64,000 bases of DNA, from the NCBI GenBank assembly GCA_003597955.1, contig QZJU01000020.1, positions 13,459 through 77,458 of the forward strand. Direction: 5' to 3'. Position numbers and translations under genes: made by a program. This document shows, one piece after another, positions 10,971 to 61,215 of this stretch. The stretch is from Candidatus Parcubacteria bacterium. Lineage in GTDB: Bacteria > Patescibacteriota > Patescibacteriia > PEXW01. Below the pieces are notes generated by a model. That model was given only the letters and a program-made list of their open reading frames with translations. It ran no database searches and was not told the origin of the DNA. The number at the start of each line of letters is the position of its first letter. Position 1 is the stretch's first letter.

Positions 10971-10973
10971 ATT

Positions 10974-11597: not shown

Positions 11598-11702
11598 ACC
11601 CCGAACCACTTTCCAAATAAAACCTTAAGTTTAGTGTAAGGTTATTTGCCTAATGAACATCTTGGTACTAAGTGTTGGCGTTTTGCTGGAAAGTGGTGCG
11701 GG
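11598..11702. repeat. MITE-like element B (105 bp), homologous to element C, TIR ccccgaaccactttccaa / ctggaaagtggtgcgggg
   Basis: About 85% identical to the element at 22292..22396 over its full length (read by eye). It has inverted termini. Confidence 0.75.
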
Positions 11703-11740
11703 GTCAAGGCCAACTAAATCTGACTTGAAAATTCTTTGAC

Positions 11741-18355: not shown

Positions 18356-18417
18356 AAAATTTTTGGATTTGGCCTTATGCTGTTATAATACACTTAATTA
18401 ACTCGGCTTCCAAAATT

Positions 18418-18900
18418 ATGGCAAACAAGAAATTGCGCATTGGTTGGTTCACCTTCTCCTGCTGCGAAGACAGCACGATTATTTTTACGGAACTGCTGAA
18501 CGACCATTGGCAGGAATGGAAAAAACTCTTGGACATCCGCCACGCACGGGTTTTGCAGGACAAAAATGTTCTGGACGAGCTGGATGTGGCTTTCATTGAG
18601 GGCGCTTTAAATTCCCAAAAACAAGTGGACATGGCCAAGGAAATCCGTTCTAATGCCAAAAAGGTGGTGGCGATCGGCGCTTGTGCCTGCACCGGCCTGC
18701 CTTCGGTCCAAAGGAACACTTTTCCAGAAAAGGAAGCCAAAGAAATCAAACCCTTAGTGAAAAAATTCAATTTCCTGCCCAAAGGCCTGAAATTAGCCGA
18801 GGCGATCAAGGTTGATGTGAATGTCCCGGGCTGTCCCATGGACGAAAAAGTCTTTTTAAACGCCTTGGATAGTCTTCTGAAAGAATTCAAAATAATTTAA
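18418..18900 (+). CDS. [NiFe] hydrogenase small subunit (minimal, NuoB-like, proximal cluster only)
   Basis: FSCCEDS ... GACACTG ... GCP cysteine motifs. It is only 160 aa and sits immediately upstream of the large subunit. Confidence 0.72.
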   Translation: MANKKLRIGWFTFSCCEDSTIIFTELLNDHWQEWKKLLDIRHARVLQDKNVLDELDVAFIEGALNSQKQVDMAKEIRSNAKKVVAIGACACTGLPSVQRNTFPEKEAKEIKPLVKKFNFLPKGLKLAEAIKVDVNVPGCPMDEKVFLNALDSLLKEFKII

Positions 18901-18903
18901 TTT

Positions 18904-22291: not shown

Positions 22292-22396
22292 CCCCGCACC
22301 ACTTTCCAAAATAAACTTTAAGTTTTTTGTAAGGCTATTTACCTAATAAACATATTAGTGATAAGTGTTGGCGTTTTGCTGGAAAGTGGTGCGGGG
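22292..22396. repeat. MITE-like element C (105 bp), homolog of element B
   Basis: TIR ccccgcaccactttccaaa / tttgctggaaagtggtgcgggg. The interior is near-identical to B. It sits in the divergent promoter region between the EamA and NUDIX genes. Confidence 0.75.
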
Positions 22397-25302: not shown

Positions 25303-25376
25303 TGCGGGCAGGTGGAATTGCACCACCGACGTTCGGGTTAATAATCCCCGACATTCTACTCCTGAGTTATACCCGC
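25303..25376 (-). pseudogene. tRNA-like element (possible degenerate tRNA)
   Basis: It has a 7-bp acceptor stem GCGGGTA/TGCCCGC, a perfect T-arm GGTGG-TGCAATT-CCACC, and U8, A14, G15 and G18. The D-stem cannot pair canonically and the anticodon stem has a mismatch. The putative anticodon would be UAU. Confidence 0.25.
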
Positions 25377-43662: not shown

Positions 43663-44069
43663 GGGGATGTTCATAAGTTGATAGTTTGCTTTGACAATTA
43701 GCCTGCGGACCGCCTTTTTCGGGAATGGCGTAAAACTTTCTGAAAATTAGACAAATGCCAATTCATTTGTCAGCAAAGTGAAGACTGCATTGGCCAAAAC
43801 CTTTGCCGTCCCAGCTTTCGCTCCGGTTGTTGCTTAAAAACCAATAACCCATTCGCCCCGCAGCCTGATGCGGGATTCGCGAGTGTTAAATTTCAGGCTG
43901 GATATTTTTCACCGCGCGCTGAAAAATATTGAGAAACTTGCGCGCTTTGGCGTTTTGCGATCTTGGTTGTTCCCTGCGCAAAATGTCGAAAACCCTTGAA
44001 CAACCTATGTCCGAAGAAAGTTAATTGCCGGTAAACTAGACAGGGGTGCAAGACCCCTCATCTCCACCA
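43663..44069 (+). ncRNA. ssrA: tmRNA (ssrA)
   Basis: The 5' GGGGATG pairs with the 3' CATCTCC-A-CCA, giving a 7-bp acceptor stem with a G3·U70 wobble (the alanine identity element). A T-arm AGGGG-TGCAAGA-CCCCT directly precedes it. A D-analog UUCAUAAGUUGAUA follows the 5' strand. It sits immediately downstream of smpB. A candidate tag ORF ends ...FAPVVA-TAA. Confidence 0.72.
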
Positions 44070-47708: not shown

Positions 47709-47787
47709 GGGCTCGTGGTGTAGCCCGGTCTAACACGTCTCCCTGTCACGGAGAAGATCGCCGGTTCAAATCCGGTCGAGCCCGCCA
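47709..47787 (+). tRNA. tRNA-Asp (anticodon GUC), CCA encoded
   Basis: Acceptor GGGCTCG/CGAGCCC, D-stem GTGT/ACAC, anticodon stem TCTCC/GGAGA with loop CTGTCAC, T-arm GCCGG-TTCAAAT-CCGGT, discriminator G, then CCA. Confidence 0.9.
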
Positions 47788-48880: not shown

Positions 48881-49813
48881 ATGCTAAATAGTCAAATCGC
48901 TTTAGGTAGCGTAATTCATACAAGCGATGATGCGTTTTGGTATTGTGCTGGGCACTGGAAAATTAACAATATCCAAGATGCATGCCCTTGTATTTTGGCA
49001 TACATTCCATTAGAAGAGGCAAGAAGCAATTCTCTTAAGGTAGAGAAAACTCTCGAATTTAATGGCCGTATATATGTTAAAGTTTTTGGCCGCTATGGGC
49101 AAACTCTTGAAATATATAGAAAGGTATTAATTGCCACACGGCATAAGCTTATTTGGCCTTTACACCTAGGAAGATCGGCATTTGTAAAATATTCAGCAAT
49201 AGTGGAAGTCCGCGATCCAAGGAGTTTTCTCCACGTCTTTACGGCAAATTTGGATGATGCAGAAGAAATATTTTCAGAGTTATCAAAAATATTACAAGTC
49301 CCTTTAAATCAAATGGGACTCAGTGGAAGCAACTTAGTCATTAATGTGCCTATGTGGAGACATGAGAATGATTTTGTTATTTACGGTACCTCTACGAGTC
49401 GAAACGCTTTTAATCTAATTGAAGCCAACCGTGATGAAAAAACATTTTCTCGAAGTGCATTACCGCCATTCCACACCCAATTTAAATTTAAAAACATGTG
49501 GTTTGACCCAATATTTAGCCCAGAAGTAGAAACTAGGCATTTCTTTGATGGATGTTTATTGGAAGTTGGGGAATCAATCGGAGAAGTGACCTCCATTATA
49601 AGTGAGGATAAAGATGGAATTTTCTTTCCGGCGGTATATACATTACAAAACGGGATTAGGCTATTTTCTTTTCGAATTAGCCATAGAGGATTATTTACAA
49701 AAAATAGGCCGGTCTCCTTTTCTTCTTTATCACGAATAATACTGACATACCCCGACGGTCACAAAGAAGACGCTTATGGTATACTTGACGATGAATGGGC
49801 CACACCCGGATAA
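48881..49813 (+). CDS. Hypothetical protein (310 aa) of the AT-rich islet, co-transcribed with a NUDIX hydrolase
   Basis: A strong AAGGAGA RBS is upstream. Codon usage is AT-rich. No recognisable domain. Its 3' end overlaps the NUDIX start by 19 nt. Confidence 0.5.
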   Translation: MLNSQIALGSVIHTSDDAFWYCAGHWKINNIQDACPCILAYIPLEEARSNSLKVEKTLEFNGRIYVKVFGRYGQTLEIYRKVLIATRHKLIWPLHLGRSAFVKYSAIVEVRDPRSFLHVFTANLDDAEEIFSELSKILQVPLNQMGLSGSNLVINVPMWRHENDFVIYGTSTSRNAFNLIEANRDEKTFSRSALPPFHTQFKFKNMWFDPIFSPEVETRHFFDGCLLEVGESIGEVTSIISEDKDGIFFPAVYTLQNGIRLFSFRISHRGLFTKNRPVSFSSLSRIILTYPDGHKEDAYGILDDEWATPG

Positions 49814-50301
49814 GTCCACAAGTTGTCGTACTTCGTCATAACCAACAAGGCTATGAAGAGGTATTGTTAATCCAACGAGCTGATACGGGAATTTGGACAA
49901 TACCCGGCGGCACTGTTGAAACTGGAGAATCTTTGGAACAAGCTGCGATTCGGGAGACCAAAGAAGAAACTGGGTATGATGTAAGTTTAATTCACCAAGT
50001 CGGAAAATATAGCCTCCCCCATATGCAATTCTTGGGAGAGGCTATTGTTTTTGTTGGAAAAATTAACGGCGGCGAATCTAAAATTGGCCTTGAATCCACT
50101 CAGGTTGTTTGGTTCAATGTTAACCGCTTGCCATATAAATTACTGCCTTTCCAAAAACCAAAAATTAAAGACGCCCTGGCGGGTAAAACCAAAATAAACA
50201 AAGAATTACCAACCACGACTTGGCAGGTTTTAAGGCATTACCTTATTTTCCCGCGAATTTTCTTCAGGCTCTTAAAGTTTTACCGGAAATACAAAAAGTA
50301 A
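49795..50301 (+). CDS. NUDIX hydrolase
   Basis: Nudix box GGTVETGESLEQAAIRETKEETG. 168 aa. Confidence 0.75.
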   Translation: MGHTRISPQVVVLRHNQQGYEEVLLIQRADTGIWTIPGGTVETGESLEQAAIRETKEETGYDVSLIHQVGKYSLPHMQFLGEAIVFVGKINGGESKIGLESTQVVWFNVNRLPYKLLPFQKPKIKDALAGKTKINKELPTTTWQVLRHYLIFPRIFFRLLKFYRKYKK

Positions 50302-50318
50302 AACTTGTGAATGCTGAA

Positions 50319-52679
50319 TTACTCACTAATCCGGAAAAATTTTCGGGGTATGTTTCCCTTGCTATCGGTAATGGCAAACGCGCCTTTTTTGATTACTTGC
50401 TGGGTGTCGCGATTGACGATTTTCACATCATAAAGACCCGGCTGCATTTTGCCGTATGGGATCAACATATTTATGTTCGTGCTGCTTTTAACAAAAGTTT
50501 TCAAACGGTAAGGTCCAATTGTTACTTGGGTGCCGTTTCGGAAATTTTTGCCAAAAATATCCAGATACGCTTTTTGCGTGGCAGAACTTACCTGCTTTAG
50601 CCGCGCCACCAAGAAGCGGGAATAAACCGGGCCAGGCTGGCCGAATTTCGGGCCGCCCACCAAATCCACAGTTCGAATCAAGTCGTTGGTACTATCCGCA
50701 ACATATAAAGTGTTGCCGTCGCGGCTGACGGCCAGGCTGGCCAGACCGTTAAACTTGGCTTGGAAGCGCGTGCCATTCCGATAGCCGGTTTCGCCGGCGC
50801 CGGAAACCAAGGTCATTATGCCGGTTTGGGTATTAACCACGGTAATCCGGCTCGAACCAGCATTACTAATATACAAAAGGTTATTCTGGCCCATGGCCAA
50901 GCCGACTGGCACAGAAAGGGCCGCGTTTACGCCTTTGCCTTCGGCGTAGCCGACGCGGTTACCCACCAAGGTGGTTACGGTTTGAGTTGCCAGGTCGATC
51001 ACCCGGATCCGATGGCTGCCTTGCTCGGCAACATACAAAGTCAGGCCGTCTTCGGAAATCGCCAAACGCCTGGGTTGATTAAAGCTGGCCAAATCCCCAA
51101 CGCCGTTTGTCGAGCCAGCTGCACCCGAGCCCGCGATTAAAGTAGTCAGGCCGTCGGAAATCCTGACGCTACGAATCCGGTTATTGCCCGTGTCGGCTAT
51201 GTATAAAATTTGGCCGTCAGGCGAAATTTCAATGCCTTGGGGTCCGCGGAAATAAGCACAACCCGCAACGCTAAGATCTTGGGTTTCGCATTTCGTACCT
51301 TCTTGGTAGCCGTTATTCATCGCGCCCGTGGAATTTATCAGACCCGCTCCGGTAATCAGCGAGGATGTTGGCGTGCCGGCCAAGGTGACTTTGCGAACTC
51401 TATTGTTCCAACGATCGACTAAATACAAAGTGGCGTCATCAGAACTTAGTACAATCGAGGAGATGGTGCTAAATCTCACCCGAGTAGTTTCTTGATTTGC
51501 CGGCCCTTCCCCGTAATCGTCGACCATGTCGCCAATAACCGTGGTGGTTTCGCCGGTGGCTAAAATAATTTTCTTAATCTGGTTATTAACCGCGGCGTAC
51601 ATAATTGAACCGTCTGTAGTCATGGCAAAGGCCGCGGGTCGGCCGAGTAAAACCCCGCCTTTGATGTCGTCTACATTCCCAAACCGAGTTGAGCCAATGA
51701 AACCTTCTTCATCCGTAGGTAAAGATTTGCTGTAACGGTGAATTGTGCCTATGCCGGAATTCGCCACATAGACATTGTTGCCATAAACCCTTAAGCCGCA
51801 AGGAAAATTCAAATCTTGCATGCGAAAATCTGTGGCAAATAACGAAGTTTGTTTGGTGGTTAAATCAATGGCCCGCACATAATCAGTCAGGCCATTGCCG
51901 TCGCTGACATACAAAGTGTTGCCGTCGCGGGTAATGCCCCAGACATTCTGGAATATTGCCTCTTCACCCACTCCTTCCCAATACCCTGAAATGCCTGAGC
52001 CAGCAATAACACTTGCTTGGCCAGTGGCAATGTTAACGCTTAAAACTCGGTGTGAGCCGCTGTCGGCCACATATAATTCAAGCCCATCAGCTGACAAGGC
52101 CAGTTTTTTCGGCGCCTTAACCTGCGTGGAAACCGTTAGTAGCCGACCGCCGGTTATGCTGATTTTCCGAATGGCATTATTGTCTGTATCCGCTATGAAT
52201 AGGGTTGACCCATTAACTAAAACGCCCTGGGGGTTCTTTAGGCCAGTTCTAACCAAGGTTGAAACTGTACCATTGGTTTTAACGACCCGAATGCGATTAT
52301 TGGCTGAATCCGCTACATATAAATTGCCATTTGTGTCTCTGGCCAAACCCCGCGGCAAGGCAAAATTTGCACCACGCGCCACGCCGTCACGGTTTCCGTA
52401 CCCACCGTTTCCGGCATAAGTTGAAACTGTGCCATCCGGTGAAACTTTTCTAATGACATTGTTGTATGTGTCGGCGATAAAAAAAGTGCCGTCAGCCGTT
52501 ATTTCCAAATCTTCGGGAAAATCTAAAAGCGCTTGGGTTCGACCCAAACCGTCACCCGCGTAGATCTTCCCCAAAAATGTCGTGGTGTCGCCATAGGCCG
52601 CTAATGACATTTTTGGCAAAACCAAAGCTCCCGCGCTTAAAACCAGAGCGGAAATCAGAAGTTTTAAATAAAGCTTCAT
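50319..52679 (-). CDS. Secreted NHL-repeat beta-propeller protein with a C-terminal IPT/TIG-like domain
   Basis: Signal peptide, many NHL-like repeats (YVAD/YIAD...NNRI motifs) and a C-terminal Ig-like domain. 786 aa. Confidence 0.68.
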   Translation of the reverse strand: MKLYLKLLISALVLSAGALVLPKMSLAAYGDTTTFLGKIYAGDGLGRTQALLDFPEDLEITADGTFFIADTYNNVIRKVSPDGTVSTYAGNGGYGNRDGVARGANFALPRGLARDTNGNLYVADSANNRIRVVKTNGTVSTLVRTGLKNPQGVLVNGSTLFIADTDNNAIRKISITGGRLLTVSTQVKAPKKLALSADGLELYVADSGSHRVLSVNIATGQASVIAGSGISGYWEGVGEEAIFQNVWGITRDGNTLYVSDGNGLTDYVRAIDLTTKQTSLFATDFRMQDLNFPCGLRVYGNNVYVANSGIGTIHRYSKSLPTDEEGFIGSTRFGNVDDIKGGVLLGRPAAFAMTTDGSIMYAAVNNQIKKIILATGETTTVIGDMVDDYGEGPANQETTRVRFSTISSIVLSSDDATLYLVDRWNNRVRKVTLAGTPTSSLITGAGLINSTGAMNNGYQEGTKCETQDLSVAGCAYFRGPQGIEISPDGQILYIADTGNNRIRSVRISDGLTTLIAGSGAAGSTNGVGDLASFNQPRRLAISEDGLTLYVAEQGSHRIRVIDLATQTVTTLVGNRVGYAEGKGVNAALSVPVGLAMGQNNLLYISNAGSSRITVVNTQTGIMTLVSGAGETGYRNGTRFQAKFNGLASLAVSRDGNTLYVADSTNDLIRTVDLVGGPKFGQPGPVYSRFLVARLKQVSSATQKAYLDIFGKNFRNGTQVTIGPYRLKTFVKSSTNINMLIPYGKMQPGLYDVKIVNRDTQQVIKKGAFAITDSKGNIPRKFFRISE

Positions 52680-52788
52680 AAATTTTTAATAGTTTAAATT
52701 TTTATTTTTTTGCTAATATTATTATAGCATATTTTAAATAAAAAATAAAGGGGCGAACTTTTAAGTTCGTCCCTTTGAAAAAACAATG

Positions 52789-53808
52789 TTATTTTAACGC
52801 TAAATCCGGAATAAACCGGATCTCGCGCTTAATGCGAACCACGCCCTGATTCCCGTCAAAGCCGTTCTGAACATCATTGATGGTCAGTTCGACTTCTTTG
52901 GGATTAGGACTGTCGTTCACCACGGCAACATTGGCGCCCATTCTTAAAGGCTGCCAATCGCCGTCGAATTCCCGATAAATCAAAGCGTACCGATTCAGGT
53001 TAGCCGCGATATAATCCCCAACCCTATTCGATTCAGTGAATTTGGCACTGGCTTCCAGGCCGTTGCCGTCGCACCAGAATTCCTGACTCGTGCCATACGT
53101 AAAGCTCAAAAAGACATCGGGCATATACCAGGCTGAATCGATTTCTAAGGTTAGTATTGAACTTGGCGGAACCGTTATTGTCTCCGGGTTGTTATTCGTG
53201 ACATCAAGCTCAATAACCACGGTATCCTGGGTTTGCGCTTGAGCTTGCCTGGTTTTGCCTGGCAGTGTAATGCCAGCGCTATCCATAACAGCCTCAATAC
53301 TTCTTTTGGCTTTCTGAATATCGGTGCCGACTTTAAGAAAGTCAGCTTCAACCACCGAATCCATGACAATGGAATCAGCCGATTGCTTGACCAATGCCGC
53401 TCGCACGCGTTTCTCGGTGGCTTGGGCGGATTTTTGGACAAAAACCTGTAATCCGCCGATAACCACGCTCTGTTGAGCCGCGACCGGATTAAATAATTTG
53501 GCGGCTTCGGTGTTTTGATCAGACAATACATCAAGCATTTTGGAATACTCAATGGTCGGCTGCAAAGATCGGTACCATTTAACGCCTTGATAGACAATCA
53601 CTATGGCGCAGAAAGCCGCCACGACCACGCCCGCCCAGCGATGAATGGTAAAGCCAATGGCCAGTAAGGAAACAATCACGATTGCTTCCAATGCCTTACT
53701 GTTATACTCACCAATAAAAAATTTAGTGAGTATGGCCAAGATAAGCATAACTGCTAAAAAGGCCGAGAGCTTGGGATACCGTTTAATATATTCCCTCAAG
53801 GTTTTCAT
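52789..53808 (-). CDS. Hypothetical membrane protein (3 TM helices plus an extracytoplasmic beta-rich domain)
   Basis: 339 aa. It is the last gene of a three-gene minus-strand operon. Confidence 0.45.
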   Translation of the reverse strand: MKTLREYIKRYPKLSAFLAVMLILAILTKFFIGEYNSKALEAIVIVSLLAIGFTIHRWAGVVVAAFCAIVIVYQGVKWYRSLQPTIEYSKMLDVLSDQNTEAAKLFNPVAAQQSVVIGGLQVFVQKSAQATEKRVRAALVKQSADSIVMDSVVEADFLKVGTDIQKAKRSIEAVMDSAGITLPGKTRQAQAQTQDTVVIELDVTNNNPETITVPPSSILTLEIDSAWYMPDVFLSFTYGTSQEFWCDGNGLEASAKFTESNRVGDYIAANLNRYALIYREFDGDWQPLRMGANVAVVNDSPNPKEVELTINDVQNGFDGNQGVVRIKREIRFIPDLALK

Positions 53809-53817
53809 GTTTTTCTC

Positions 53818-54663
53818 CTATGCTTGCCCTTTCTTGCTTTTTCGAAGCTCAAATATCTCATCAATTACAAACAGTGAGGCAATGATTTCCCCCGCGTTCT
53901 TCTTAATGAATTTTAAAAACTTAATCCAGGGAATTGGTTTTTCGGCCTCTGTGGCTGCGGCAGTTTGTCCACCTGAGCCGGCCACAACGAAAGTAGGTGC
54001 TGGCCAATTAATCACGCTAGTTGTGCCAGAGCTCTCCTTGCCCTCGGTTTTACCCCGTTCCGCAAAATTGCTAATGCCTTCGCGGATTGAAGCAAACATA
54101 TTCTGGATAAATTCCCAGCTTTCCTCCCTTAAAGAAATCAAGCCGTAGGCCAAGGTAATTAGCCAACCTAAAGGCAGAGCAACAAACCACCAAACTAACC
54201 AGAAAATTATCCAACCCCAGGAAGTTTGCCGATTAGCCACATCTTGGGTGTCGGCAGAATCCTGTTTAGCCTGTGCATAGCCGAAAAATTTCTCCGCATC
54301 GGGTAAATACCCAGTGTGGATTACTGATCGGTCCATGGAAGGAATTGGGTCATTGGCCTGGATCGGCGGAGAATCATGGGTTATAACCAGCGCGGCAACC
54401 GTAATGACTGAAGCCAAAGTCAGGACAAACATGAAAATCAATAAAACACGAGCGCGGGCATTGTTAGTGCTCATTTGCCTGGCAAACCATCGACCTAACC
54501 AGGTCGAAAAACTTTCTTTGGGCGTTTCGATTGGCGTCCCCATATCGCCTTCTCTAACTCGACTTGCAACTCGCATGGCAGACTTAAATATTAGTTTTAA
54601 TATTGCTATTAAAACGATTATTGCTGCCAAGATTAAACCTAAAAACAATAATACATATCCCAT
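53818..54663 (-). CDS. Hypothetical polytopic membrane protein
   Basis: 281 aa with four TM helices, including a Trp-rich segment WGWIIFWLVWWFVALPLGWLI. Confidence 0.45.
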   Translation of the reverse strand: MGYVLLFLGLILAAIIVLIAILKLIFKSAMRVASRVREGDMGTPIETPKESFSTWLGRWFARQMSTNNARARVLLIFMFVLTLASVITVAALVITHDSPPIQANDPIPSMDRSVIHTGYLPDAEKFFGYAQAKQDSADTQDVANRQTSWGWIIFWLVWWFVALPLGWLITLAYGLISLREESWEFIQNMFASIREGISNFAERGKTEGKESSGTTSVINWPAPTFVVAGSGGQTAAATEAEKPIPWIKFLKFIKKNAGEIIASLFVIDEIFELRKSKKGQA

Positions 54664-54664
54664 A

Positions 54665-55639
54665 TCAACCTCTTATTCTATTCCGTTCATCCTGAAAGCC
54701 AGCCCAAAAACCTTGAACCGGTTTTTTTGCCGAGCTTTCAGTTACGGCTTTGGCCGCAGCGGGTTTTTTGATGTTTCCGACTTTCGGCGCAAAACCTTCC
54801 ACATACATTGTGTATTTGGTCAACCTGCCCTTTGGCTCAAAGTTGAAGGGTCCCAGAGAAACTTGGCCAGTTGCATCAGTTTTGTCCTCTTTTGGTTTTT
54901 GTGAACCGCAGCGGACAACCACTTTACAATTTGGCACTGGCTCACCGGTTTTAGTTTGCCAGACCGTGCAGGTAACTCGGAAGGTGCCCTCGTCAATAAC
55001 CGAATCCAGAATTTTAAATTCCCTCGCCGGCCAAGACTTAGACACTCGAATCACCTGACGTCGTTCGCCAGTCTGCAAAGTGGACGCGACAATTTCGTAA
55101 TCTCTATCCTCTTCAATCGGGCCAAAATACGCTTCACACCGACCATTGGCATCCGTCAGCAAATTTTGTTCAGCAAAACCTTTTACCCGCAGTTTTACTG
55201 AACAACCCACAACCGGCCGGCTTGCGCTGGTAACCTGCGTCCCTACCGCTAATTTCTTGACTTTCATGTCATCGATCTTAGCGTCAAAAACATTTGTTAC
55301 TAAAGTAAGCGCAACCGCATTTGTCGGCGCGGTAAACGGGACATCTCGGGTAAGTTCCCAAGTCTCCCCGCCAATCTCCAAAGTTGCCTGAACGCGGGGC
55401 TGTTGGCTTAAATCCGAAATCGGAACCGAAACAACGGTCTGGCCTTCTTTGGCCAAATCCGCCTCAAAAGTCTGGCCATAAGCCGTGCCTTTGATGGTCC
55501 CGCTTTCGCCCTTCAGGTGATTGGGAATTTTCGGGCTGAACTTAAGAACTAAAGCAAGGTTGCCCCCGCGCATTTCCCAAGTCTGCCCAACCAAAGCCAA
55601 TGACAACTTATTCGCGTTGTCTTTGTCTGGTTTTGCCAT
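54665..55639 (-). CDS. Hypothetical protein with carboxypeptidase-regulatory-like (Cna-B type) beta-sandwich domains
   Basis: VVGCSVKLRVKG...TDANGRCEAYFGP and a second TDATGQVSLGPF repeat. 324 aa. No signal peptide is evident. Confidence 0.45.
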   Translation of the reverse strand: MAKPDKDNANKLSLALVGQTWEMRGGNLALVLKFSPKIPNHLKGESGTIKGTAYGQTFEADLAKEGQTVVSVPISDLSQQPRVQATLEIGGETWELTRDVPFTAPTNAVALTLVTNVFDAKIDDMKVKKLAVGTQVTSASRPVVGCSVKLRVKGFAEQNLLTDANGRCEAYFGPIEEDRDYEIVASTLQTGERRQVIRVSKSWPAREFKILDSVIDEGTFRVTCTVWQTKTGEPVPNCKVVVRCGSQKPKEDKTDATGQVSLGPFNFEPKGRLTKYTMYVEGFAPKVGNIKKPAAAKAVTESSAKKPVQGFWAGFQDERNRIRG

Positions 55640-55848
55640 GACTAACTCCTTTCGTTTATAGTATTGTTTATGTTCTTAATTGTTGATTAAATTTTCAACG
55701 AACTTCCAACCTCATCGGCTGGAGCTATAACCTGGAAAGCCATGGCTATAACAATCCAAGCTAACATTTATTTGCGAATTTGTCAAGGTTTTTTGGAGGG
55801 GTAAATATTTTACACATTCACTTGATTAAAAACACAGTCTACACTCTT

Positions 55849-55967
55849 CTTATTTGTATTTCGTATATTCCCGCCCGTTTCGCCTTGTGAAGCGACCCGC
55901 CCGACTGAACGACTTCAGTCGTTCGGGCGGGTGGCGAGCAGACGTACTTTTATTTGTAATTCGTAGA
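55849..55967. repeat. Small GC-rich palindromic insertion (about 80 bp core) flanked by about 18-bp imperfect direct repeats ttatttgta(t/a)ttcgta
   Basis: The core contains cccgcccg three times and a long hairpin cccgcccgactgaacgac/gtcgttcgggcggg. The flanks are ttatttgtatttcgtata and tttatttgtaattcgtaga. It lies in the AT-rich divergent promoter region. Confidence 0.6.
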
Positions 55968-56042
55968 CAATTCCATAACCGGTAACTTGACATTTATACA
56001 ATTTCCTGCTAGTCTCACGAGAATAAATCAAAAACAAAACGC

Positions 56043-56990
56043 ATGAATTCAAAGGAGGAAATCATGCCGCTAATACTGTTCTTACTATTTGGATTGCTCG
56101 TGGCTTGGGGCATAAGGTTCGTGCCCAGTCAAAAACAGTGGCTGCCTATCTTTTTGGGCAAAAGATTGCATATTCGTCTGCTTGAAGGACCGGTTTGGCT
56201 GCCAAGATGGCTTTATACATACACGGAAGTTCCCATAACCGAAAACGAACTCGTAGTTTTGCGTGACGATCAAGAACCCGGGCGACAGTCGGAAACTATT
56301 ATGACTACGAATGGCGTAATGGTGGAAATCAGGAATGTTTCGGTTTTTTGGAGCATCAAGCGCCAAGACGATCAGCCTTTTAAAGGCTGGCGAAAAATTT
56401 TGAGCTTGCTCGGTTGGCATCCAGGTAACCAACTCTTTGATTTTACCCAGATTGGGGACAAAATCTTCACTGAACGGATAAAAACGATAACCCTGCAAGA
56501 GCAGCGAAAGCATGTCCAAGTTTATTCTTTCCAAGAACTGCTGGGTATAACTTTGGAAGGTTTGGATATGCCGGCGGCTGACCGTGATAAAGTCATTGCC
56601 ACTCGCAGCGAGTTGCATTTAAAAATCGCGGTGGCTGTTAACCAGGAAACGAACCGCTGGGGCGCCGAGATCTATCGGGTTAGTATCGGCGATATTGATC
56701 CGGATCCGGTGATTAAAAAAGCCTTGGAAGAAAAAACGCAGGCGCTGGGGCATAAAATGCAGGTTATGGTCCGCTTGAGCGCTGACCTGGAACGGGTAAA
56801 ACAGTTACTCGAACTTGCCAATCAGCCAGCCACGTCTGAAAACATCATGAAAGCCTATGAGCTTATCCGGTCTTTGGATAACAACCGCATAGGCAACGAA
56901 CAGCTCGGACTGCTCGCGGATGTCTTCAAGCGCTTGGCAGGCCGACCTGTAGCCGAGATTATTCCCAAAATTGCCGAGGCTATGAGCTGA
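56043..56990 (+). CDS. SPFH/Band-7 (stomatin/prohibitin-like) domain protein
   Basis: N-terminal TM followed by an SPFH-like core (VVLRDDQ...TTNGVMVEIRNVSVFWSI) and a C-terminal coiled-coil. Confidence 0.55.
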   Translation: MNSKEEIMPLILFLLFGLLVAWGIRFVPSQKQWLPIFLGKRLHIRLLEGPVWLPRWLYTYTEVPITENELVVLRDDQEPGRQSETIMTTNGVMVEIRNVSVFWSIKRQDDQPFKGWRKILSLLGWHPGNQLFDFTQIGDKIFTERIKTITLQEQRKHVQVYSFQELLGITLEGLDMPAADRDKVIATRSELHLKIAVAVNQETNRWGAEIYRVSIGDIDPDPVIKKALEEKTQALGHKMQVMVRLSADLERVKQLLELANQPATSENIMKAYELIRSLDNNRIGNEQLGLLADVFKRLAGRPVAEIIPKIAEAMS

Positions 56991-57025
56991 TCCACAAGCC
57001 TTTGTCTTTATAGACAAAGGCTTTT

Positions 57026-57892
57026 TTATTTATGAGAAATAATTATTAAACGCTCCTTCGTGCTTTGCGCCAGTATCTCGCCCTCCAAATCCGTCCGGTG
57101 GATTTCTGCATTGCTTTTCTGTAAACGCTCTAAAACGCTTGGCGCCGGATGGCCATATCGGTTTTTGGCGCCAACTGAAAGAATCGTATATTGCGGCTTG
57201 GTTGCATTTAGGAATTCTTCACTGGTTGAGGATTTACTGCCGTGATGTCCGACTTTTAACACTTCAACTGGGCGAAGCTGATTGGCGTCAACCAGCCGAC
57301 TTTCGACTTTGTCTGGCGCGTCTCCGGTAAATAAAAAATCTACTTCGCCATACGAAAGCTCCAAAACAATCGAGCCGAGATTCAAATTCTTAGGGTCAAA
57401 AGAAAAATCTTTCGGCGGCCAGAGAATCTTCGCCCGGACCTGGCCGAAAAAAATTTCCAGGCCTTGCGCGCCGTTAATTACCGGCAGGTTTTTCGCGGCG
57501 ATTTCAGCCAAAAAATTTTTTGACAATGCAGAATCGCTAAACGCTTCAGTCATCAACACGCGTTTAACCCGGCCAGTTTTTAAAAGCGCCAGCAAGCCCG
57601 TAATATGATCAGCGTCCAAGTGCGTGGCAACCAGCAAATCAACATTCCGGTCAGTCAAGGGCAATTTCGCGTCGACTTGCTCCACGAATTTCTGGCTTGG
57701 GCCACCGTCAATAATAATGGTTTCCTGGCTGGGCGTGCGGATAATTATGCCGTCACCTTGGCCGACATCGGCAAACCAAACTCTTAAAGTCTGGTCTGCA
57801 CGGCTTTGCCAAAACCAAATTCCAAGGCTCAAAACCAAGAAACCAATCAGGCTTAAGGCGAATTTTTTACTAATCAAAAAGCGGTTTGACAT
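57026..57892 (-). CDS. comEC: ComEC C-terminal metallo-beta-lactamase domain (separate ORF)
   Basis: DVGQGD, ATHLDADH and VGHHGS motifs. It overlaps the upstream membrane ORF by 23 nt in a different frame. Confidence 0.8.
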   Translation of the reverse strand: MSNRFLISKKFALSLIGFLVLSLGIWFWQSRADQTLRVWFADVGQGDGIIIRTPSQETIIIDGGPSQKFVEQVDAKLPLTDRNVDLLVATHLDADHITGLLALLKTGRVKRVLMTEAFSDSALSKNFLAEIAAKNLPVINGAQGLEIFFGQVRAKILWPPKDFSFDPKNLNLGSIVLELSYGEVDFLFTGDAPDKVESRLVDANQLRPVEVLKVGHHGSKSSTSEEFLNATKPQYTILSVGAKNRYGHPAPSVLERLQKSNAEIHRTDLEGEILAQSTKERLIIISHK

Positions 57893-59318
57893 ATTTACCG
57901 AATAAAATTCGCAAAACCAAGACGATTGCGAAAACCAAAGTGACTGCCAGCCAGAGCGGCATTATCAAGCTAGCACCGGGCAAACGCGATCCGAAGACCG
58001 AAACCAGCTCGACAAATTTTAAAAAACCCCAAGTCGCTAGACCGACCAATTGGGCTGTGGGCGGCCAAACCAAATTTGCCAGGCCGACAAAGCTTACCAA
58101 GCCCATAATCCATGGCACCAGCGGTACGACAATTAGGTTGGTAATGGGACTGATGATGGAAATTTGCTGAAAATTTATCAAAACCACTGGCAGGGTTCCG
58201 CAAGTCGCGGCCAAAGTCGCGCTTAAAACTTCACGCACAAATTTCGGCAACCTGGCCAACCAAATTTGAAACGGCTGGCTAAAAGCAATTAGCCCGAAAG
58301 TCGCGCCAAAGGAAAGCTGGAAGCCGAGATTATCCCAAAGCAAAGTTGGGTTTATTATCAACAAAACCGCGGCCGCGGCGAATAAAACATTCAGGCCGGA
58401 AACCGGCCGGCCGATATTCTGTATCGCTAAAGCCAAAATCGCCATTACCGCCGCGCGTAAAATTGAAGCTTCACCCCCGGTCAGGATTACAAAACTAAAA
58501 GCCAGAACCGAGATTAGGCCGATTCTGATAATTTTTGGAAAGTATTTGTTGAAAACAAAAATAAACAAAATCAATATCAGGGAAAGGTTTTGGCCAGAAA
58601 CCGCAATTAAATGACTAAGCCCGGTCCGTCTGAATTCGTCAAGGCTGGTCTGGGAAAAAAATGACGTTTCACCGATGGTCATGCCCGCAGCCAGACTGGC
58701 CTCTTGGAACGGTAAAACCTTTTGCAGGCTTTTAATAAATTTCATCCGACCTTGCCAGATAAGATCCCGGTAATTAAAACTGGCCGCCGCAATTACTTTT
58801 ACGCGCGGGTTTGCGCAAAATCCGGAAATTCGCTCACGCCGGATCTGCGCAGGGGTTAATTTTGGTTCGGAAATCTCCCGGCAAAAAACTTCAAGCGTAT
58901 CATTAATTTTTATCTCCCGATCTTGAATTGTCGCCAAAACCCGGAATCCTTTTTCCAGTTCAATGATGAGTTGCTGCCGGTTTGTGCTTTTTAAAGTGAT
59001 GTTTTTAACCGACCCCCGGCCGGTAAAATCGCTTTTTACCAGCTTAGGAAAATTTAAAGCCTGCTGGGTTCGCAAAAAAATTAAACCTATCAAAAGTAGG
59101 CTGCAAAATATGCCGCGCAAACCCGCGCGCCAGATAATAACCCAAACTAGTAAAAAAATCAGCCAAGCCGCTTTTAACCAAATCGAAACCCCCGGATACC
59201 CAAGAGTGATTCCGGCGCAGACGGCGAAGGTTGAAATAAAAAGCCAGCGAGAGGGCGTCATATTGCCTGCTCGTCCGCTTGTCTTTTTTAATTTAATAGA
59301 AACATTTAAAGATGTCAA
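57870..59318 (-). CDS. comEC: ComEC/Rec2 membrane channel portion (DUF4131 plus Competence domain)
   Basis: 482 aa, polytopic, with the conserved GLSHLIAVSGQNLS region. It was either split from the MBL domain by a frameshift or is genuinely bipartite. Confidence 0.8.
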   Translation of the reverse strand: MTSLNVSIKLKKTSGRAGNMTPSRWLFISTFAVCAGITLGYPGVSIWLKAAWLIFLLVWVIIWRAGLRGIFCSLLLIGLIFLRTQQALNFPKLVKSDFTGRGSVKNITLKSTNRQQLIIELEKGFRVLATIQDREIKINDTLEVFCREISEPKLTPAQIRRERISGFCANPRVKVIAAASFNYRDLIWQGRMKFIKSLQKVLPFQEASLAAGMTIGETSFFSQTSLDEFRRTGLSHLIAVSGQNLSLILILFIFVFNKYFPKIIRIGLISVLAFSFVILTGGEASILRAAVMAILALAIQNIGRPVSGLNVLFAAAAVLLIINPTLLWDNLGFQLSFGATFGLIAFSQPFQIWLARLPKFVREVLSATLAATCGTLPVVLINFQQISIISPITNLIVVPLVPWIMGLVSFVGLANLVWPPTAQLVGLATWGFLKFVELVSVFGSRLPGASLIMPLWLAVTLVFAIVLVLRILFGKYVKPLFD

Positions 59319-59361
59319 AACACCCTAACTTCTTTAAGTTAGGGTGTAATAAATGTTCAAA

Positions 59362-61215
59362 TCACTTAACCGTCACGCTCTTAGCCAGGTTGCGCGGTTT
59401 ATCCGGGTTCAGGCCGCGGAGCCGGGCAATGTGGTAGGCAAAGAGCTGCAGAGGCACGACCGCAAGGATCGGCGTTAGGTAATAATCAATCTGCGGAATC
59501 CAGATAACATCATCCACGCAATTTTTAATTTCATCGTCGCCATCGGTGGCCACGGCGATGATCCTGCCTCGGCGGGAACGAATCTGCTGGATGTTTGTGG
59601 TTATCTGGGAATAATAATCGTCTTGTTTTGGTGCGATGACCAAAGTCGGAAAACCGCCGTCGATCAAAGCGATCGGCCCGTGTTTCATTTCGCCGGCGGA
59701 ATAACCAATGGCATTCACATAGGCAATCTCTTTGAGTTTTAAAGCGCCTTCCAAGGCCACGGGATAATTCACGCCCCGGCCTAAATACAGAAAATTGGGA
59801 TAACCGGCATACCGCTTGGCCGCGTCTATTATTTCGTTTTCACGATTTAAGACTTCGGTCACCAGCAAAGGCAGTTTGCGCAAATCGGCGAGAAGCCGAT
59901 CATGCCAATTGATTTTTGGCAAACCGCGAATTTGGCGCAAATACATCGCAATAAGGAAGAGTGTCACGAGCTGATTGGTAAACGCCTTAGTGGAGGCCAC
60001 GGCGATTTCCATGCCAGCGTGAATGTAAACGCCTTTACCGGTAAGCCTGGCGATTTCACTGCCGACCTTGTTGACAATGCCAAAGCAAGGCAGATCCTGC
60101 TGCTTGAGGGTTTTTAGCGCGTCCAGCAGGTCTTTAGTTTCACCAGACTGGCTAATCGCCCAAAACGCGGTTTGGACAGGGAATATCGGTCGCTTTTGGT
60201 TGGCCAATTCCGAAGCGCTTTCCCAATCGGCCGACAACTCGGCAAGCTCTTGGAAAAAAATCTTCGATATCATACCGGCGTTTAAGGAAGTTCCGGCGCC
60301 CACAAAGACATGGTTTTGCATCATACGTAAAAGTTCTTGGTGCGAGTCTAGTCCGCCGAGTTTAACTGTACCGTCATCCAACAGTCGACCGCGCAGAGCT
60401 TGCGTAAGCACTTGAGGCTGCTCCTTAATCTCCTTGCTCATAAAATGGTCATGTTCGCCTTTTTCCGCGGTTTCTAATGACCAAGGAATTGTTTCGACCT
60501 CGTTTTCCACTTTATCGGCGTTCATATTCACCACTTGATAGTCTGAACCTGAAATCCAGCCTAAGTTCCCATCTTCCAGATTGACCATGCGGTCAGTGTA
60601 GAACCGAAACGCCAACGGATCCGAGGCGATAAAATTACCCTTGAGGCTCAAGCCTAATGCCAGGGGCGCGCCATTTCGCGCAAAAAAAATCCTATCGGAA
60701 AAACCCGCCATCAGCACGGCCAGGCCAAAAGTGCCTTGCACTTGCTGCAGCGCGGTCCGCAGAGCCAGCACAGGATCATCTTTGTAAACTTCAGCGATCA
60801 GGTGAACCAGCAATTCCGTGTCCGTTTCGGAACGCAGAACGTGTCCGCGCTTGAGAACGAGGCTTTTTAAAGTCTCAAAATTATCCAGAGTACCGTTGTG
60901 AACCAGCGCTATCTGGATTTTACACGCTTGGCCGTTTCCACACCCCCGGTGCGGGTGCGCGTTTGTTTCATTCGGCTCGCCGTGCGTCGCCCAACGGGTG
61001 TGGGCAATGCCGGCGGTAATGTTTGGACGGCATAATTTTTGCGTGGTGGTTTCTAAACCGTTAACCGATCCAGCCTGCTTGATTACGCAAAGCTCTTTGT
61101 CGTCAAAGACGGCAAGGCCGGCTGAATCATAACCTCGATATTCCAGCTTTTTCAGCCCAGAAATCAATCTGGGGAGGGCTGGCTCTTTGCCGACATAACC
61201 AACAATTCCACACAT
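59362..61215 (-). CDS. glmS: Glutamine--fructose-6-phosphate aminotransferase
   Basis: N-terminal MCGIVGY (Ntn amidotransferase) and two SIS domains. 617 aa. Confidence 0.95.
   Translation of the reverse strand: MCGIVGYVGKEPALPRLISGLKKLEYRGYDSAGLAVFDDKELCVIKQAGSVNGLETTTQKLCRPNITAGIAHTRWATHGEPNETNAHPHRGCGNGQACKIQIALVHNGTLDNFETLKSLVLKRGHVLRSETDTELLVHLIAEVYKDDPVLALRTALQQVQGTFGLAVLMAGFSDRIFFARNGAPLALGLSLKGNFIASDPLAFRFYTDRMVNLEDGNLGWISGSDYQVVNMNADKVENEVETIPWSLETAEKGEHDHFMSKEIKEQPQVLTQALRGRLLDDGTVKLGGLDSHQELLRMMQNHVFVGAGTSLNAGMISKIFFQELAELSADWESASELANQKRPIFPVQTAFWAISQSGETKDLLDALKTLKQQDLPCFGIVNKVGSEIARLTGKGVYIHAGMEIAVASTKAFTNQLVTLFLIAMYLRQIRGLPKINWHDRLLADLRKLPLLVTEVLNRENEIIDAAKRYAGYPNFLYLGRGVNYPVALEGALKLKEIAYVNAIGYSAGEMKHGPIALIDGGFPTLVIAPKQDDYYSQITTNIQQIRSRRGRIIAVATDGDDEIKNCVDDVIWIPQIDYYLTPILAVVPLQLFAYHIARLRGLNPDKPRNLAKSVTVK

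Follow-up and report, generated by a model that had tools for sequence, protein, structure and literature searches.

Organization of the locus

The locus considered here (positions 52,789 to 56,990 of the window, that is, of the whole 64-kb stretch of Candidatus Parcubacteria DNA that was analysed) carries three open reading frames on the minus strand, P1 (55639..54665, 324 aa), P2 (54663..53818, 281 aa) and P3 (53808..52789, 339 aa), and a gene on the plus strand (56064..56990), whose product has an N-terminal membrane anchor followed by an SPFH/Band-7 domain (PF01145, 46.5 bits against a cut-off of 23.6 bits). This is the arrangement described in the original prediction, an uncharacterised three-gene operon divergent from an SPFH gene; as to the word "uncharacterised", no known family matches the operon and its relatives form only a small family. 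In a crude hydropathy scan the SPFH protein displayed one N-terminal hydrophobic segment, and its match to the PH stomatin 3bk6 was weak (E = 0.009). Its start codon is probably ATG 56064, preceded by a conserved AAGGAGG, and not the alternative ATG 56043 further upstream. A sequence scan found a terminator-like hairpin with a T-run 3' of the gene, on the same strand (56996..57023).

The comparison set was composed of only 7-8 distinct loci, all of them metagenomic. In all loci the site of the module on the chromosome is fixed, between ComEC-MBL and the gene of an NHL-repeat protein, which is secreted. SPFH orthologues scoring above the Pfam cut-off were found in five other loci (six including the window), and the gene adjoins P1-P3 in all loci with an identifiable upstream gene, except one. 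It is divergent from P1-P3 in the window, L003, L008 and L014 and co-directional with them in L011 and L012/13, so that the link persists across six distinct loci whichever way the SPFH gene points. At the level of sequence, the SPFH gene and P1-P2-P3 demonstrably constitute a membrane module of four genes that is specific to a clade comprising a few Parcubacteria (Patescibacteria).

Predicted features of P1, P2 and P3

Searches of Pfam, NCBIfam, PADLOC and PHROG gave no significant match for P1-P3, in agreement with the earlier remark that none of them belongs to a recognised family, and none of the module components resembled a known defence, secretion or adhesion family in searches including PADLOC and PHROG. 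P1, a soluble protein, consists of three tandem Ig-like beta-sandwich domains (residues about 13-99, 109-199 and 206-291) and a C-terminal helix (residues 311-323), its best fold matches being Ig-like arrays of bacterial adhesins, e.g., invasin, intimin and RTX adhesins. Neither a signal peptide, nor a transmembrane or other hydrophobic segment, nor a sorting motif was detected in P1 from its sequence and a crude hydropathy scan, and since the first two are lacking, the "envelope" label once given to the operon is not valid for this protein. In one relative, L014, P1 is fused to P2; the P1 part of the fusion precedes a four-helix membrane domain and has no signal peptide, which places P1 in the cytoplasm.

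P2 is a Trp-rich polytopic membrane protein with a K/R-rich first loop; its C-terminal tail is long and, according to the family alignment, terminates with an acidic helix that is conserved. It had been described as Trp-rich with four transmembrane segments; the former holds, but three hydrophobic segments, and not clearly four, were seen in the hydropathy scan. One homologue, P0004, shares 46% identity with P2, and no consistent Pfam family was found. P3 begins with about three hydrophobic helices, which a helical linker connects to a beta-rich C-terminal domain; this domain is conserved and bears the motifs W.DA.G, YPAP.LN.YSL.Y, NDS and ND...N.G.V.I (family alignment). The number of helices agrees with the three-TM protein predicted previously, but the placement of its large domain outside the cytoplasm is not established. 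The topologies given here were derived by applying the positive-inside rule to the result of a crude hydropathy scan. P3 gave no Pfam or PDB sequence match, and an AF2 model built from the single sequence was of low quality (pLDDT 42.6).

Promoters and the structured leader of the P1 operon

Two separate promoters, instead of the shared promoter region proposed originally, serve the divergent units. The SPFH promoter (55987..56015, plus strand) has the -35 box TTGACA (55987-55992), a 17-nt spacer and the -10 box TAGTCT (56010-56015), and is kept as TTGAC[AG]-N17-TAGnnT in L003, L008 and L014. The promoter of the P1 operon (55758..55786, minus strand), with TTGACA at 55786-55781, a 17-nt spacer and TAGCTT at 55763-55758, was missed by a generic promoter scanner because its -10 box is non-canonical; each of the 8 distinct loci has TTGACA-N17-TAnnnT at a constant distance of 28 nt ahead of GTTAT.

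The transcript of the P1 operon would begin with a structured 5' leader (55640..55757, minus strand), recognised from its fold, covariation and conservation. Three hairpins are predicted, at 55752-55724, at 55723-55705 (with a GNRA-type loop in relatives) and at 55703-55672 (bearing the invariant GUUCRUUGAAAA), and the Shine-Dalgarno (SD) sequence GGAG of P1 is at 55649-55646. The leader is about 90-125 nt long across relatives, its three-hairpin architecture is common to 7 distinct sequences, and its folding z-scores are -4.5 and -4.4. In two alignments, hand-fitted or CM-fitted and so favouring the structure, 98.9% and 96.4% of the cells were paired, with 9 and 13 pairs showing double changes; none of 500 shuffles was as good, and slid controls were 28-50% paired. 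The covariance model of the leader (R1) matched only sites upstream of P1 in 277 kb, and no Rfam family matched it. By these comparative measures the structured leader, overlooked in the original prediction, is the control element that is truly conserved.

Hairpin 1 has an alternative at each locus, since its 5' arm and loop can pair with the SD sequence and AUG, and the minimum free energy structure pairs the 5' part of the leader with both in 7/7 sequences. Cognate duplexes beat non-cognate ones, 8 of 720 permutations being as good (about 0.011, a modest value), and subgroups differ in the register of the SD-sequestering helix. The prediction is that the leader sequesters both the ribosome-binding site and the start codon.

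Hypervariability of the P1-P3 cassette

Hypervariability of P1-P3 did not figure in the original prediction. Among genomes that share 85-97% identity in the flanks, the coding DNA of the three genes is essentially unalignable. Between L003 and L005 the NHL proteins are 92% identical, and P1, P2 and P3 are 28%, 29% and 42% identical, respectively; between L011 and L012 the figures are 91% for the SPFH protein and 24% for P1. Sliding nucleotide identity is 92-97% over the promoter and leader, about 40% from the ATG on, and recovers within the last ~450 nt of P3. The 5' breakpoint coincides exactly with the start codon of P1, and the 3' breakpoint falls inside P3 or P2. Neither paralogues, nor silent copies, nor TR/VR-type repeats were found nearby. 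Such sharp breakpoints, with unalignable P1-P3 between conserved flanks, show, as far as aligned genomes can, that the cassette is replaced as divergent alleles through recombination in the flanking DNA.

The GC-rich element between the promoters

The 403-bp intergenic region (GC 0.39) contains an 84-bp palindromic core (55866..55949) with GC of 0.62 against 0.33 in the remainder. As predicted for this GC-rich core of an AT-rich spacer, the octamer CCCGCCCG occurs in it three times, at 55870, 55896 and, inverted, 55924; genome-wide the octamer is not enriched. The predicted fold (-41.9 kcal/mol, z = -3.2) comprises a small hairpin (55876-55894) and a main hairpin (55894-55934). Flanking direct repeats, TTATTTGTATTTCGTA on the left (55850..55865) and TTATTTGTAATTCGTA on the right (55950..55965), were confirmed by repeat alignment, although they are 16 nt long (15/16 identical) and not 18 nt; 0/200 shuffles of the region equalled this.

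The core is absent from the relatives L003, L008, L014, L011, L012, L004 and L005. The gaps between the two -35 boxes are 200 (window), 132, 19 and 41 bp. Missing from all relatives, in which the divergent promoters sit 19-41 bp apart, the core is an insertion, as had been predicted; judged from this comparison, it is specific to the strain lineage and lies outside the conserved control region. Being situated between the -35 boxes, which it moves 200 bp apart, it is upstream of both; the two promoters and 5' UTRs are outside the insert, intact and conserved with relatives, so nothing is disrupted and the suggested rewiring of regulation finds no support. A search for further copies of the palindrome revealed none in the 64-kb window, and one metagenome scan (without the source contig) revealed only one other context for its hairpin. 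This is a related hairpin in L017/L019 (38/41 matching), located in frame inside trmD; in L017 it shows one compensatory pair (CUGA/UCAG changed to CCGA/UCGG) and constitutes a ~12-aa in-frame extra segment. L003, the closest relative, has a different, MITE-like element with terminal inverted repeats (TIR) at the same spot of the spacer. Its ~105-bp family, with three copies in the window (10868, 11599 and 22292), fits the definition of a MITE better than the core does.

The nature of the core can be considered in several ways. That it is a MITE whose insertion duplicated the target site in a shared promoter region, rewiring one or both units, seems to us somewhat unlikely: its absence from all relatives, the non-random 16-nt direct repeat, the closely related hairpin in a different context of another genome and the genuine multi-copy TIR element that L003 has at this spot all speak for this reading, and insertion and repeat stand, but the core termini are not inverted repeats, the duplication is far longer than is typical of MITEs, the core is single-copy in the window with one other context in the metagenome scan, and any regulatory effect would be indirect, via spacing or supercoiling. 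L017 also has an apparent intron-split tRNA gene with a 15-nt exact match, TCAGTCGTTCGGGCG, and an adjoining small hairpin that resembles the core (local alignment score 41 versus 22.7 +/- 3.8 for shuffles, maximum 37), so that the core might be a relic or offshoot of a group-I-intron-like RNA sequence, an ectopic copy in the spacer that is not self-mobile. However, the similarity extends over only about 55 nt, the L017 intron match (Rfam Intron_gpI, 12.9 bits only) is below threshold, its tRNA was not called by ARAGORN, and the window spacer has neither group I features nor an Rfam match at E <= 10, which makes such an origin very unlikely. A functional site serving both divergent genes, either an operator/cruciform or a small RNA gene, would accord with the stable fold, the compensatory change keeping the hairpin between two genomes and the central position between two promoters; yet the core is conserved in no relative, the closest included, lacks an Rfam match and any promoter-like site facing it, and the hairpin homologous to it in the other context is part of a coding gene, so that we consider this extremely improbable.

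Possible function of the module

Since no component resembles known defence, secretion or adhesion families, function is inferred here solely from the pattern of variation and the architecture. We suppose, with a probability of about 0.5 for the proposal as a whole, that the locus is a fixed-site SPFH module with a leader switch, allele replacement, a role in conflict and an inserted core. Hairpin 1 of the leader and the competing pairing of its 5' arm with the SD-AUG region would act as a translational on/off switch. Cytoplasmic P1, with its three Ig-like domains, would dock on P2; P2 and P3 would reside in the membrane, and the SPFH protein would scaffold the complex on the cytoplasmic face. 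The turnover of P1-P3 alleles would reflect diversifying or frequency-dependent selection, and the most likely role of the module would be not housekeeping but phage exclusion, sensing of the abortive-infection type or some other interaction interface. The core would be a small insertional palindromic element of the RPE/REP type, and its effect, if any, would be the uncoupling of two back-to-back promoters.

Defence systems are usually patchily present, and the fixed core-genome site would be just as well explained by a housekeeping complex that happens to be unusually variable. In such a complex P3 would be a very divergent NfeD-type partner and P1/P2 clade-specific accessories, with fast evolution and recombination of the kind typical of CPR membrane proteins, not conflict, behind the variability. 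Besides the constant position in all loci, this is favoured by the fact that in several SPFH subfamilies the gene regularly shares an operon with that of a partner, by a weak NfeD_membrane match of one P3 relative (E = 0.014) and by the SamG/SamH-SamI precedent in B. subtilis (bioRxiv 10.64898/2026.02.06.704340). On the other hand, neither single sequences nor a profile gave a PF01957 or PDB NfeD match, P3 is twice as long as NfeD, and identity cliffs at the start codon beside 92-97% identical DNA are unlike uniform fast evolution; we find the housekeeping interpretation rather doubtful. It is quite unlikely that the operon builds an extracellular or surface structure (an adhesin, episymbiont host attachment), with P2/P3 exporting a P1 that varies to evade phage or match hosts: the adhesin-like folds of P1, hypervariability, which is typical of surface proteins, and the secreted NHL neighbour point in this direction, but signal peptide, hydrophobic segment and sorting motif are all missing from P1, and the L014 fusion places it in the cytoplasm.

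Comparison with known systems

Like Rickettsia palindromic elements (RPE), REP/BIME and MITEs, the core is a short, GC-rich insert that forms a hairpin and that relatives lack at the orthologous site; unlike them, it is known from only two contexts, has no terminal inverted repeats and is flanked by a 16-nt repeat. RPE occur in frame inside protein-coding genes, and the core-related copy in another genome likewise lies in frame inside trmD. The term Rickettsia palindromic elements is in use (PMC1458961, PMC1166351).

The P1 leader resembles SD-sequestering leaders (riboswitch expression platforms, RNA thermometers and ribosomal-protein leaders), in which a 5' segment can either pair with the SD and start codon or fold into a local hairpin, and its stems covary. 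In contrast to the known examples, it belongs to no Rfam family and is confined to the upstream regions of P1 homologues within a small clade.

In variable-cassette loci (capsule/O-antigen, bacteriocin-immunity, defence hot spots, "metagenomic islands") conserved anchors flank variable genes. P1-P3 share with them identity cliffs, conserved flanks and homologous divergent alleles at one fixed site. The differences are that the P1-P3 cassette always contains the same three gene families and not different contents, that no mobile-element genes adjoin it, and that an RNA leader, which ends at the start codon, serves as its 5' anchor.

The coupling of an SPFH gene to small polytopic membrane proteins is shared with the NfeD-SPFH pairs (YbbJ-QmcA, YuaF-FloT, PH1510/PH1511) and with pspA-ydjGHI (samGHI) of B. 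subtilis, where the membrane proteins SamG/SamH recruit the SPFH protein SamI (bioRxiv 10.64898/2026.02.06.704340). P3 also has the outline of NfeD, in which three hydrophobic stretches are combined with an all-beta domain (PMC2636767): three N-terminal hydrophobic helices and an all-beta C-terminal domain. The differences from those systems are that none of P1-P3 matches NfeD, YdjG or YdjH in sequence, that the module adds a cytoplasmic three-Ig-domain protein, P1, that its partner genes P1-P3 are preceded by a promoter and leader of their own, that close strains carry hypervariable versions of the cassette, and that the orientation of the SPFH gene flips between lineages.

Gene content and neighborhood of the module

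The listing of open reading frames confirmed the gene positions of the original prediction: P1 (55639..54665, 324 aa), P2 (54663..53818, 281 aa) and P3 (53808..52789, 339 aa) follow one another on the minus strand, divergent from the plus-strand SPFH gene. The product of the latter scores 46.5 bits with PF01145, against a Pfam gathering score of 23.6 bits, and is therefore assigned to the SPFH domain; five orthologues, with 34.7-49.4 bits, also exceed the gathering score. A crude hydropathy scan of three orthologues revealed one hydrophobic segment (residues 1-22 to 1-26), the N-terminal membrane anchor. Within 56043-56066 the SPFH frame contains two in-frame ATGs, the second of which (56064) is conserved in the related contig L003. 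Since this second ATG is also preceded at the right distance by a conserved AAGGAGG, it is probably the true start, and the annotated one probably lies 21 nt too early. As to P2, the NCBI record (P0003) lists a protein of 252 aa, which is 29 residues short of the full frame 53818-54663; the first hydrophobic helix, conserved among the relatives, is present only in the longer form.

In agreement with the original prediction, P1-P3 could not be attributed to any recognized family: searches of Pfam, NCBIfam, PADLOC and PHROGs gave no significant match, and P1 had only sub-threshold matches to beta-sandwich domains. These proteins are not orphans, however. While a word-indexed protein search with P1-P3 returned only the queries themselves and a single homologue of P2 (P0004, 46% identity), missing the orthologues that exist in L003, an exhaustive HMMER search with P1 retrieved a small family whose members are roughly 320 aa long and show 20-41% identity, together with one 578-aa protein. 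A GTDB scan with a three-sequence alignment of P1 gave no match. The contigs of the P1 relatives represent eight distinct loci, and P2- and P3-like genes come after P1 in every locus whose contig extends that far. Directly upstream of P1, an SPFH gene scoring above the Pfam cut-off is found in the window, L003, L008/L010, L011, L012/L013 and L014; in L004 this place is occupied by a different gene, and L005, whose contig stops before the position in question, is left out of the count. SPFH is divergent from P1-P3 in the window, L003, L008 and L014 and co-directional with them in L011 and L012/L013, where a terminator hairpin lies between SPFH and the P1 promoter, which means that the SPFH gene was inverted at least once.

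Synteny is kept across the relatives, so that conservation of the neighborhood, named in the original prediction as a check, is borne out. The four genes form a module at a fixed site within conserved core genome devoid of mobile-element genes, with genes for RF1, GlmS, ComEC and an MBL-fold protein on one flank and for a secreted NHL-repeat protein, a PMT_2 glycosyltransferase and L20/L35/IF3 on the other. The NHL-repeat/TIG protein (window 50319-52679) shows 69-92% identity across loci where the other flanking genes show 40-56%.

Several observations were made in passing. Downstream of the NHL gene, L003 carries genes for a Rep protein (REP_ORF2-G2P/RepSA) and a serine recombinase (16722-19045), an integrated element absent at that position in the window. 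The SPFH-leader-P1 module of Parcubacteria type on the 3-kb contig CAZBMC010000099.1 (L013/L015) belongs to a metagenome-assembled genome labeled "uncultured Gammaproteobacteria", and this contig is probably mis-binned. The window also contains a tmRNA gene (43663-44069, 81.8 bits) and two tRNA genes (25303-25376 and 47709-47784), one of which is tRNA-Ile with anticodon TAT.

Predicted properties of P1, P2 and P3

According to its sequence and the hydropathy scan, P1 has no signal peptide, hydrophobic segment or sorting motif; its N-terminus (MAKPDKDNANK) is charged, and LPXTG is absent. The lack of a signal peptide and of a cell-wall sorting signal speaks against a sortase-dependent pilin or a secreted adhesin. 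Nor did the Cna-B/CarboxypepD_reg-like repeats that had been proposed for P1 hold up: no Pfam domain exceeds its gathering score, PF13620 reaches 21 bits (gathering score 32.3) and is matched by only 2 of 8 relatives, and P1 has an Ig-like beta-sandwich fold of a generic kind. The L014 protein joins P1 and a P2-like membrane domain of four helices in one chain, which indicates a functional link between the two proteins. Considering that P1 itself contains neither a signal peptide nor a hydrophobic stretch, and that the fused P1 precedes the four helices without a signal peptide, we infer that P1 most likely resides in the cytoplasm, tethered to P2.

P2, described in the original prediction as a protein with four transmembrane segments, is indeed polytopic, but only three clear hydrophobic segments are seen in the hydropathy scan. 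The first loop is rich in K and R, and in L011 (8990-10522) and L012 (2256-3560) it holds a K/R/E-rich, coiled-coil-like insert of ~200 aa, not found in P2 of the window; both features suggest that the first loop and the long C-terminal tail are inside the cell.

In P3, about three N-terminal helices (residues 12-79 or so form a hydrophobic block) are followed by a helical linker and, at the C-terminus, by a conserved domain rich in beta-structure, as judged from the hydropathy scan, the alignment and a poor single-sequence AF2 model, the latter being unusable for fold assignment (pLDDT 42.6). Neither Pfam nor a profile search of the PDB provided any relatives of P3.

Promoter and leader of the P1 operon

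The P1 operon has a dedicated promoter of the same design in all loci, namely TTGACA, a 17-nt spacer and TAnnnT, with GTTAT exactly 28 nt past the -35 hexamer, followed by a structured leader of 92-127 nt (as measured in the spacer alignment). Three hairpins make up the leader. The first combines a basal stem GUUAUrGCC/GGUAUAGC with a variable upper stem and a CUCC-rich loop. The second is closed by a GNRA tetraloop in all relatives and, in the window, by GAUGA; the stem is wholly re-coded from locus to locus (UCCAGCC/GGUUGGA, UCCAAGCC/GGUUUGGA, CCCAC/GUGGG, CCUACC/GGUAGG, UCCACA/UGUGGA, CUCGC/GCGGG). The third carries the invariant GUUCRUUGAAAA.

A plain MAFFT/RNAalifold alignment of the leaders proved too poor and was replaced by a hand-made structural alignment (A6) and then by an Infernal realignment (A10), in which 98.9 and 96.4% of the cells, respectively, are paired, and 9 and 13 pairs show double changes. 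In both alignments the observed pairing was reached by none of 500 shuffles, and slid controls were only 28-50% paired, although the pairing values are somewhat inflated, as both alignments were fitted to the structure. The full leaders fold with z = -4.5 and -4.4 relative to shuffles. Taken together, this comparison of sequences shows a conserved secondary structure. A covariance model built from the leaders (R1), run over 277 kb including the rest of the window, matched only the P1-upstream site of each locus, and GTTCRTTGAAAA occurs once in the window. In Rfam the window matched only tmRNA and two tRNAs, none of them corresponding to the leader or the GC-rich core; with a permissive threshold, the best scores in 55600-56100 were 13-19 bits (cut-offs, 45-120). 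A GTDB scan with the leader pattern found two contigs only, both among the loci already known.

In the minimum free energy folds computed for the leaders, the 5' arm and loop of hairpin 1 pair with the Shine-Dalgarno sequence (SD) and the AUG in seven of seven cases. The partner strands covary: UGGCUCC pairs with GGAGCCA in L008, UCUCCUAUG with CAUAGGAGA in L004, and the 5' arm GCCAUGGCUUUCC with GGAG..AGUCAUGGC in the window. Cognate duplexes of 5' arm and SD are more stable than non-cognate ones, a result equalled by 8 of 720 permutations. These predicted folds suggest that the leader acts as a translational switch, in which the local hairpin 1 would be the "on" state and the long-range helix over the SD and AUG the "off" state. 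Since the conservation of the leader is not shared by P1-P3 or even by SPFH, none of these proteins is likely to be the trigger of the switch. The fixed promoter distance, the covariation in three hairpins, the invariant 12-mer and the predicted alternative occluding the SD and AUG make the leader a candidate new RNA motif. To our knowledge, gene regulation in this phylum is almost wholly uncharted.

Replacement of P1-P3 alleles

The divergence of the module is out of step with that of its flanks. L003 and L005 share 92% identity in the NHL protein, but only 28% in P1, 29% in P2 and about 42% in P3; L011 and L012 share 91% in SPFH versus 24% in P1 and 47% in P2; and the window and L003 share 78% in the NHL protein versus 43-50% in SPFH and P1-P3. 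Sliding nucleotide identity between L003 and L005 is 92-97% over the promoter and leader, drops to about 40% in the sliding segment that holds the start codon of P1, stays there across P1, P2 and two thirds of P3, and is regained over the final ~450 nt of P3, the NHL gene being 85-96% identical. The same cliff at the P1 ATG is seen between L011 and L012, with a partial rise in the first ~470 nt of P2. Chimeric assembly is an unlikely cause, because three independent assemblies contain the L005 allele and two contain that of L012.

A drop in identity from 97% to about 40% precisely where a start codon lies, in streamlined core genomes, is a clear case of allelic replacement with a breakpoint at the ATG, and it marks P1-P3 as being under unusual selection. 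On the other side the secreted NHL-repeat/TIG gene is the 3' anchor of the variable cassette. The simplest reading of these identity profiles is that whole divergent P1-P3 alleles have been replaced via homologous recombination in the conserved flanks. An origin of the variability from a diversity-generating retroelement (DGR) or from silent cassettes was rejected, given that template and variable repeats, silent copies and paralogues are all missing nearby: the only repeats of at least 24 nt in 49000-60000 are the NHL repeats, and tblastn with all P1-P3 alleles revealed no further copies, either in the window or in the long loci.

The GC-rich core and terminal-inverted-repeat elements

The 403-bp spacer between SPFH and P1 has a GC content of 0.39, which rises to 0.62 in the 84-bp core (55866-55949) and is 0.33 in the rest. 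The core contains CCCGCCCG three times and folds into two hairpins (-41.9 kcal/mol, z = -3.2). The direct repeats on its sides, TTATTTGTATTTCGTA and TTATTTGTAATTCGTA, which are 100 bp apart, are real and non-random (none of 200 shuffles was as good), but they comprise 16 nt (15/16 matches) and not the 18 originally given. The SPFH promoter (TTGAC[AG]-N17-TAGnnT) and UTR are conserved as well, and the core, placed between the -35 hexamers of the two promoters, interrupts no promoter element. These hexamers are separated by 19 bp in L008 and 41 bp in L014, as against 200 bp in the window and 132 bp in L003, from which tight back-to-back promoters seem to be the ancestral state, the window and L003 having each gained DNA. 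The core is missing at the orthologous sites of L003, L008, L014, L011, L012, L004 and L005, i.e., it is polymorphic in presence and absence. We conclude from these alignments that the core is probably an inserted small palindromic element, as had been predicted; the same absence from every relative speaks against a conserved regulatory site. It is a minor, strain-specific and lineage-specific insertion between intact promoters.

Its assignment to the MITEs fared worse. The two ends of the core (TATTCCCGCCCG... and ...GCAGACGTACTT) do not form an inverted repeat; the palindrome lies inside the element. The flanking direct repeat of 16 nt (15/16) may be a target-site duplication, but it is much longer than those of MITEs usually are. 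No second copy occurs within the 64-kb window. Hence, membership of the core in a MITE family is contradicted by its termini and, in respect of copy number, unproven, the scanned collections being without the source genome. When a metagenome collection without the source contig was scanned with the core hairpin, five of the seven matches were due to chance, lying in contigs of 64-75% GC, and one real relative was found on L017/L019 (GC about 0.5). This sequence (L017 3609-3649, L019 87-127; GACCCGCCCGAACGACCGAAGTCATTCGGTCGGGCGGGTGG) matches the core hairpin on the opposite strand at 38 of 41 positions, and two of the three differences constitute a compensatory U-A to C-G change. In L017 the hairpin lies in frame within trmD and accounts for a segment of ~12 residues missing from the solved TrmD structures. 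Insertion in frame inside ORFs is known behavior of the Rickettsia palindromic elements (RPE), and by its compensatory change and in-frame copy the core resembles RPE/REP-like elements.

Where the core came from may be hinted at, more weakly, by another part of L017. On the minus strand, at about 510-770, what looks like a tRNA gene is interrupted by a group-I-like intron; this stretch shares a 15-nt exact match with the core and has an adjacent hairpin resembling the core. The intron scores only 12.9 bits with Rfam Intron_gpI, and ARAGORN did not call the split tRNA gene. Other identities of the core were rejected: it is not a trmD fragment (there is no trmD in the window, and the similarity is confined to the hairpin), not a terminator (there is no T-run, and the flanking genes are divergent), and not a tRNA or an SRP-like small RNA. 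ARAGORN called no tRNA in the core or the leader.

In L003, an element of ~107 bp with perfect 18-nt terminal inverted repeats (GCCCCGCACCACTTTTAA) occupies the place of the core, exactly between the SPFH and P1 promoters (about 8733-8839). Three more intergenic copies of its family, of ~105 bp, are present in the window (10868-10971, 11599-11703 and 22292-22396), with terminal inverted repeats CCCCGCACCACTTTCC/GGAAAGTGGTGCGGGG and about 80% internal identity between two copies; two members adjoin a TTGACA -35 box. It is this family that looks like a true MITE. As the core and the L003 element show, small palindromic elements are tolerated when they land in the gap between the back-to-back promoters.

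Possible role of the module

The organisms that carry the module spend their lives attached to other cells, and few defense systems have been recognized in them. We suppose that SPFH scaffolds a complex of P1-P3 on the cytoplasmic face of the membrane, that the leader gates translation of the P1 operon, and that diversifying selection on the cassette reflects a role in conflict or recognition, for example, in phage exclusion. The boldest reading, to which we give a probability of roughly one in five, is that of a conflict or recognition locus of an unrecognized kind in ultra-small episymbionts: an SPFH-scaffolded complex, the three specificity genes of which would be swapped as whole alleles, recombination being anchored in a translational riboregulator that is new and confined to the clade and that would answer a conserved signal. 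That the genes encode instead a housekeeping SPFH complex we regard as rather unlikely; the fixed position in the core genome fits it almost as well as it fits a role in conflict.

The database searches bear on the conflict reading as follows. None of the four proteins matched PADLOC-DB at E <= 1, and no relative of P1 was found on the viral contigs of IMG/VR. A relaxed leader pattern had 26 matches on viral contigs, without the promoter or the hairpins and with no R1 score. These are chance matches, those to PHROGs are insignificant, and the searches revealed no link to phages. The literature search yielded nothing relevant on SPFH proteins in Patescibacteria or in anti-phage defense, and no description of an SPFH-P1-P2-P3 module.

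The original finding is real, yet it is notable for the leader and the cassette rather than for a "MITE": what is new is the conserved leader RNA together with the hypervariable cassette linked to SPFH, and the core is of minor interest. SPFH proteins are poorly understood scaffolds; through the fixed link seen here, a protein of three Ig domains and two membrane proteins become available for study as a new client complex.

Comparison with known systems

NfeD, the classical operon partner of SPFH proteins, has three hydrophobic stretches and an all-beta domain in 140-150 aa (PMC2636767). The outline predicted for P3, about three N-terminal hydrophobic stretches and a beta-rich domain, is reminiscent of it, but P3 differs in its length of 339 aa, twice that of NfeD, and in the lack of a sequence match to NfeD/YuaF domains. 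PF01957 (the C-terminal OB-fold of NfeD) matched none of six P3 relatives, NfeD was not among the matches of the P3 profile in the PDB at E <= 10, and the hint of NfeD is a single weak match to PF24961 (E = 0.014). In view of the double length and this lone match we did not file P3 as NfeD.

As for the core, the closest known systems are the RPE, REP and MITE elements. For regulation of the P1 operon they are leaders that sequester the SD, and for the population behavior of P1-P3, variable-cassette loci. In architecture, the module comes closest to the B. subtilis SamG/SamH-SamI and the NfeD-SPFH operons.
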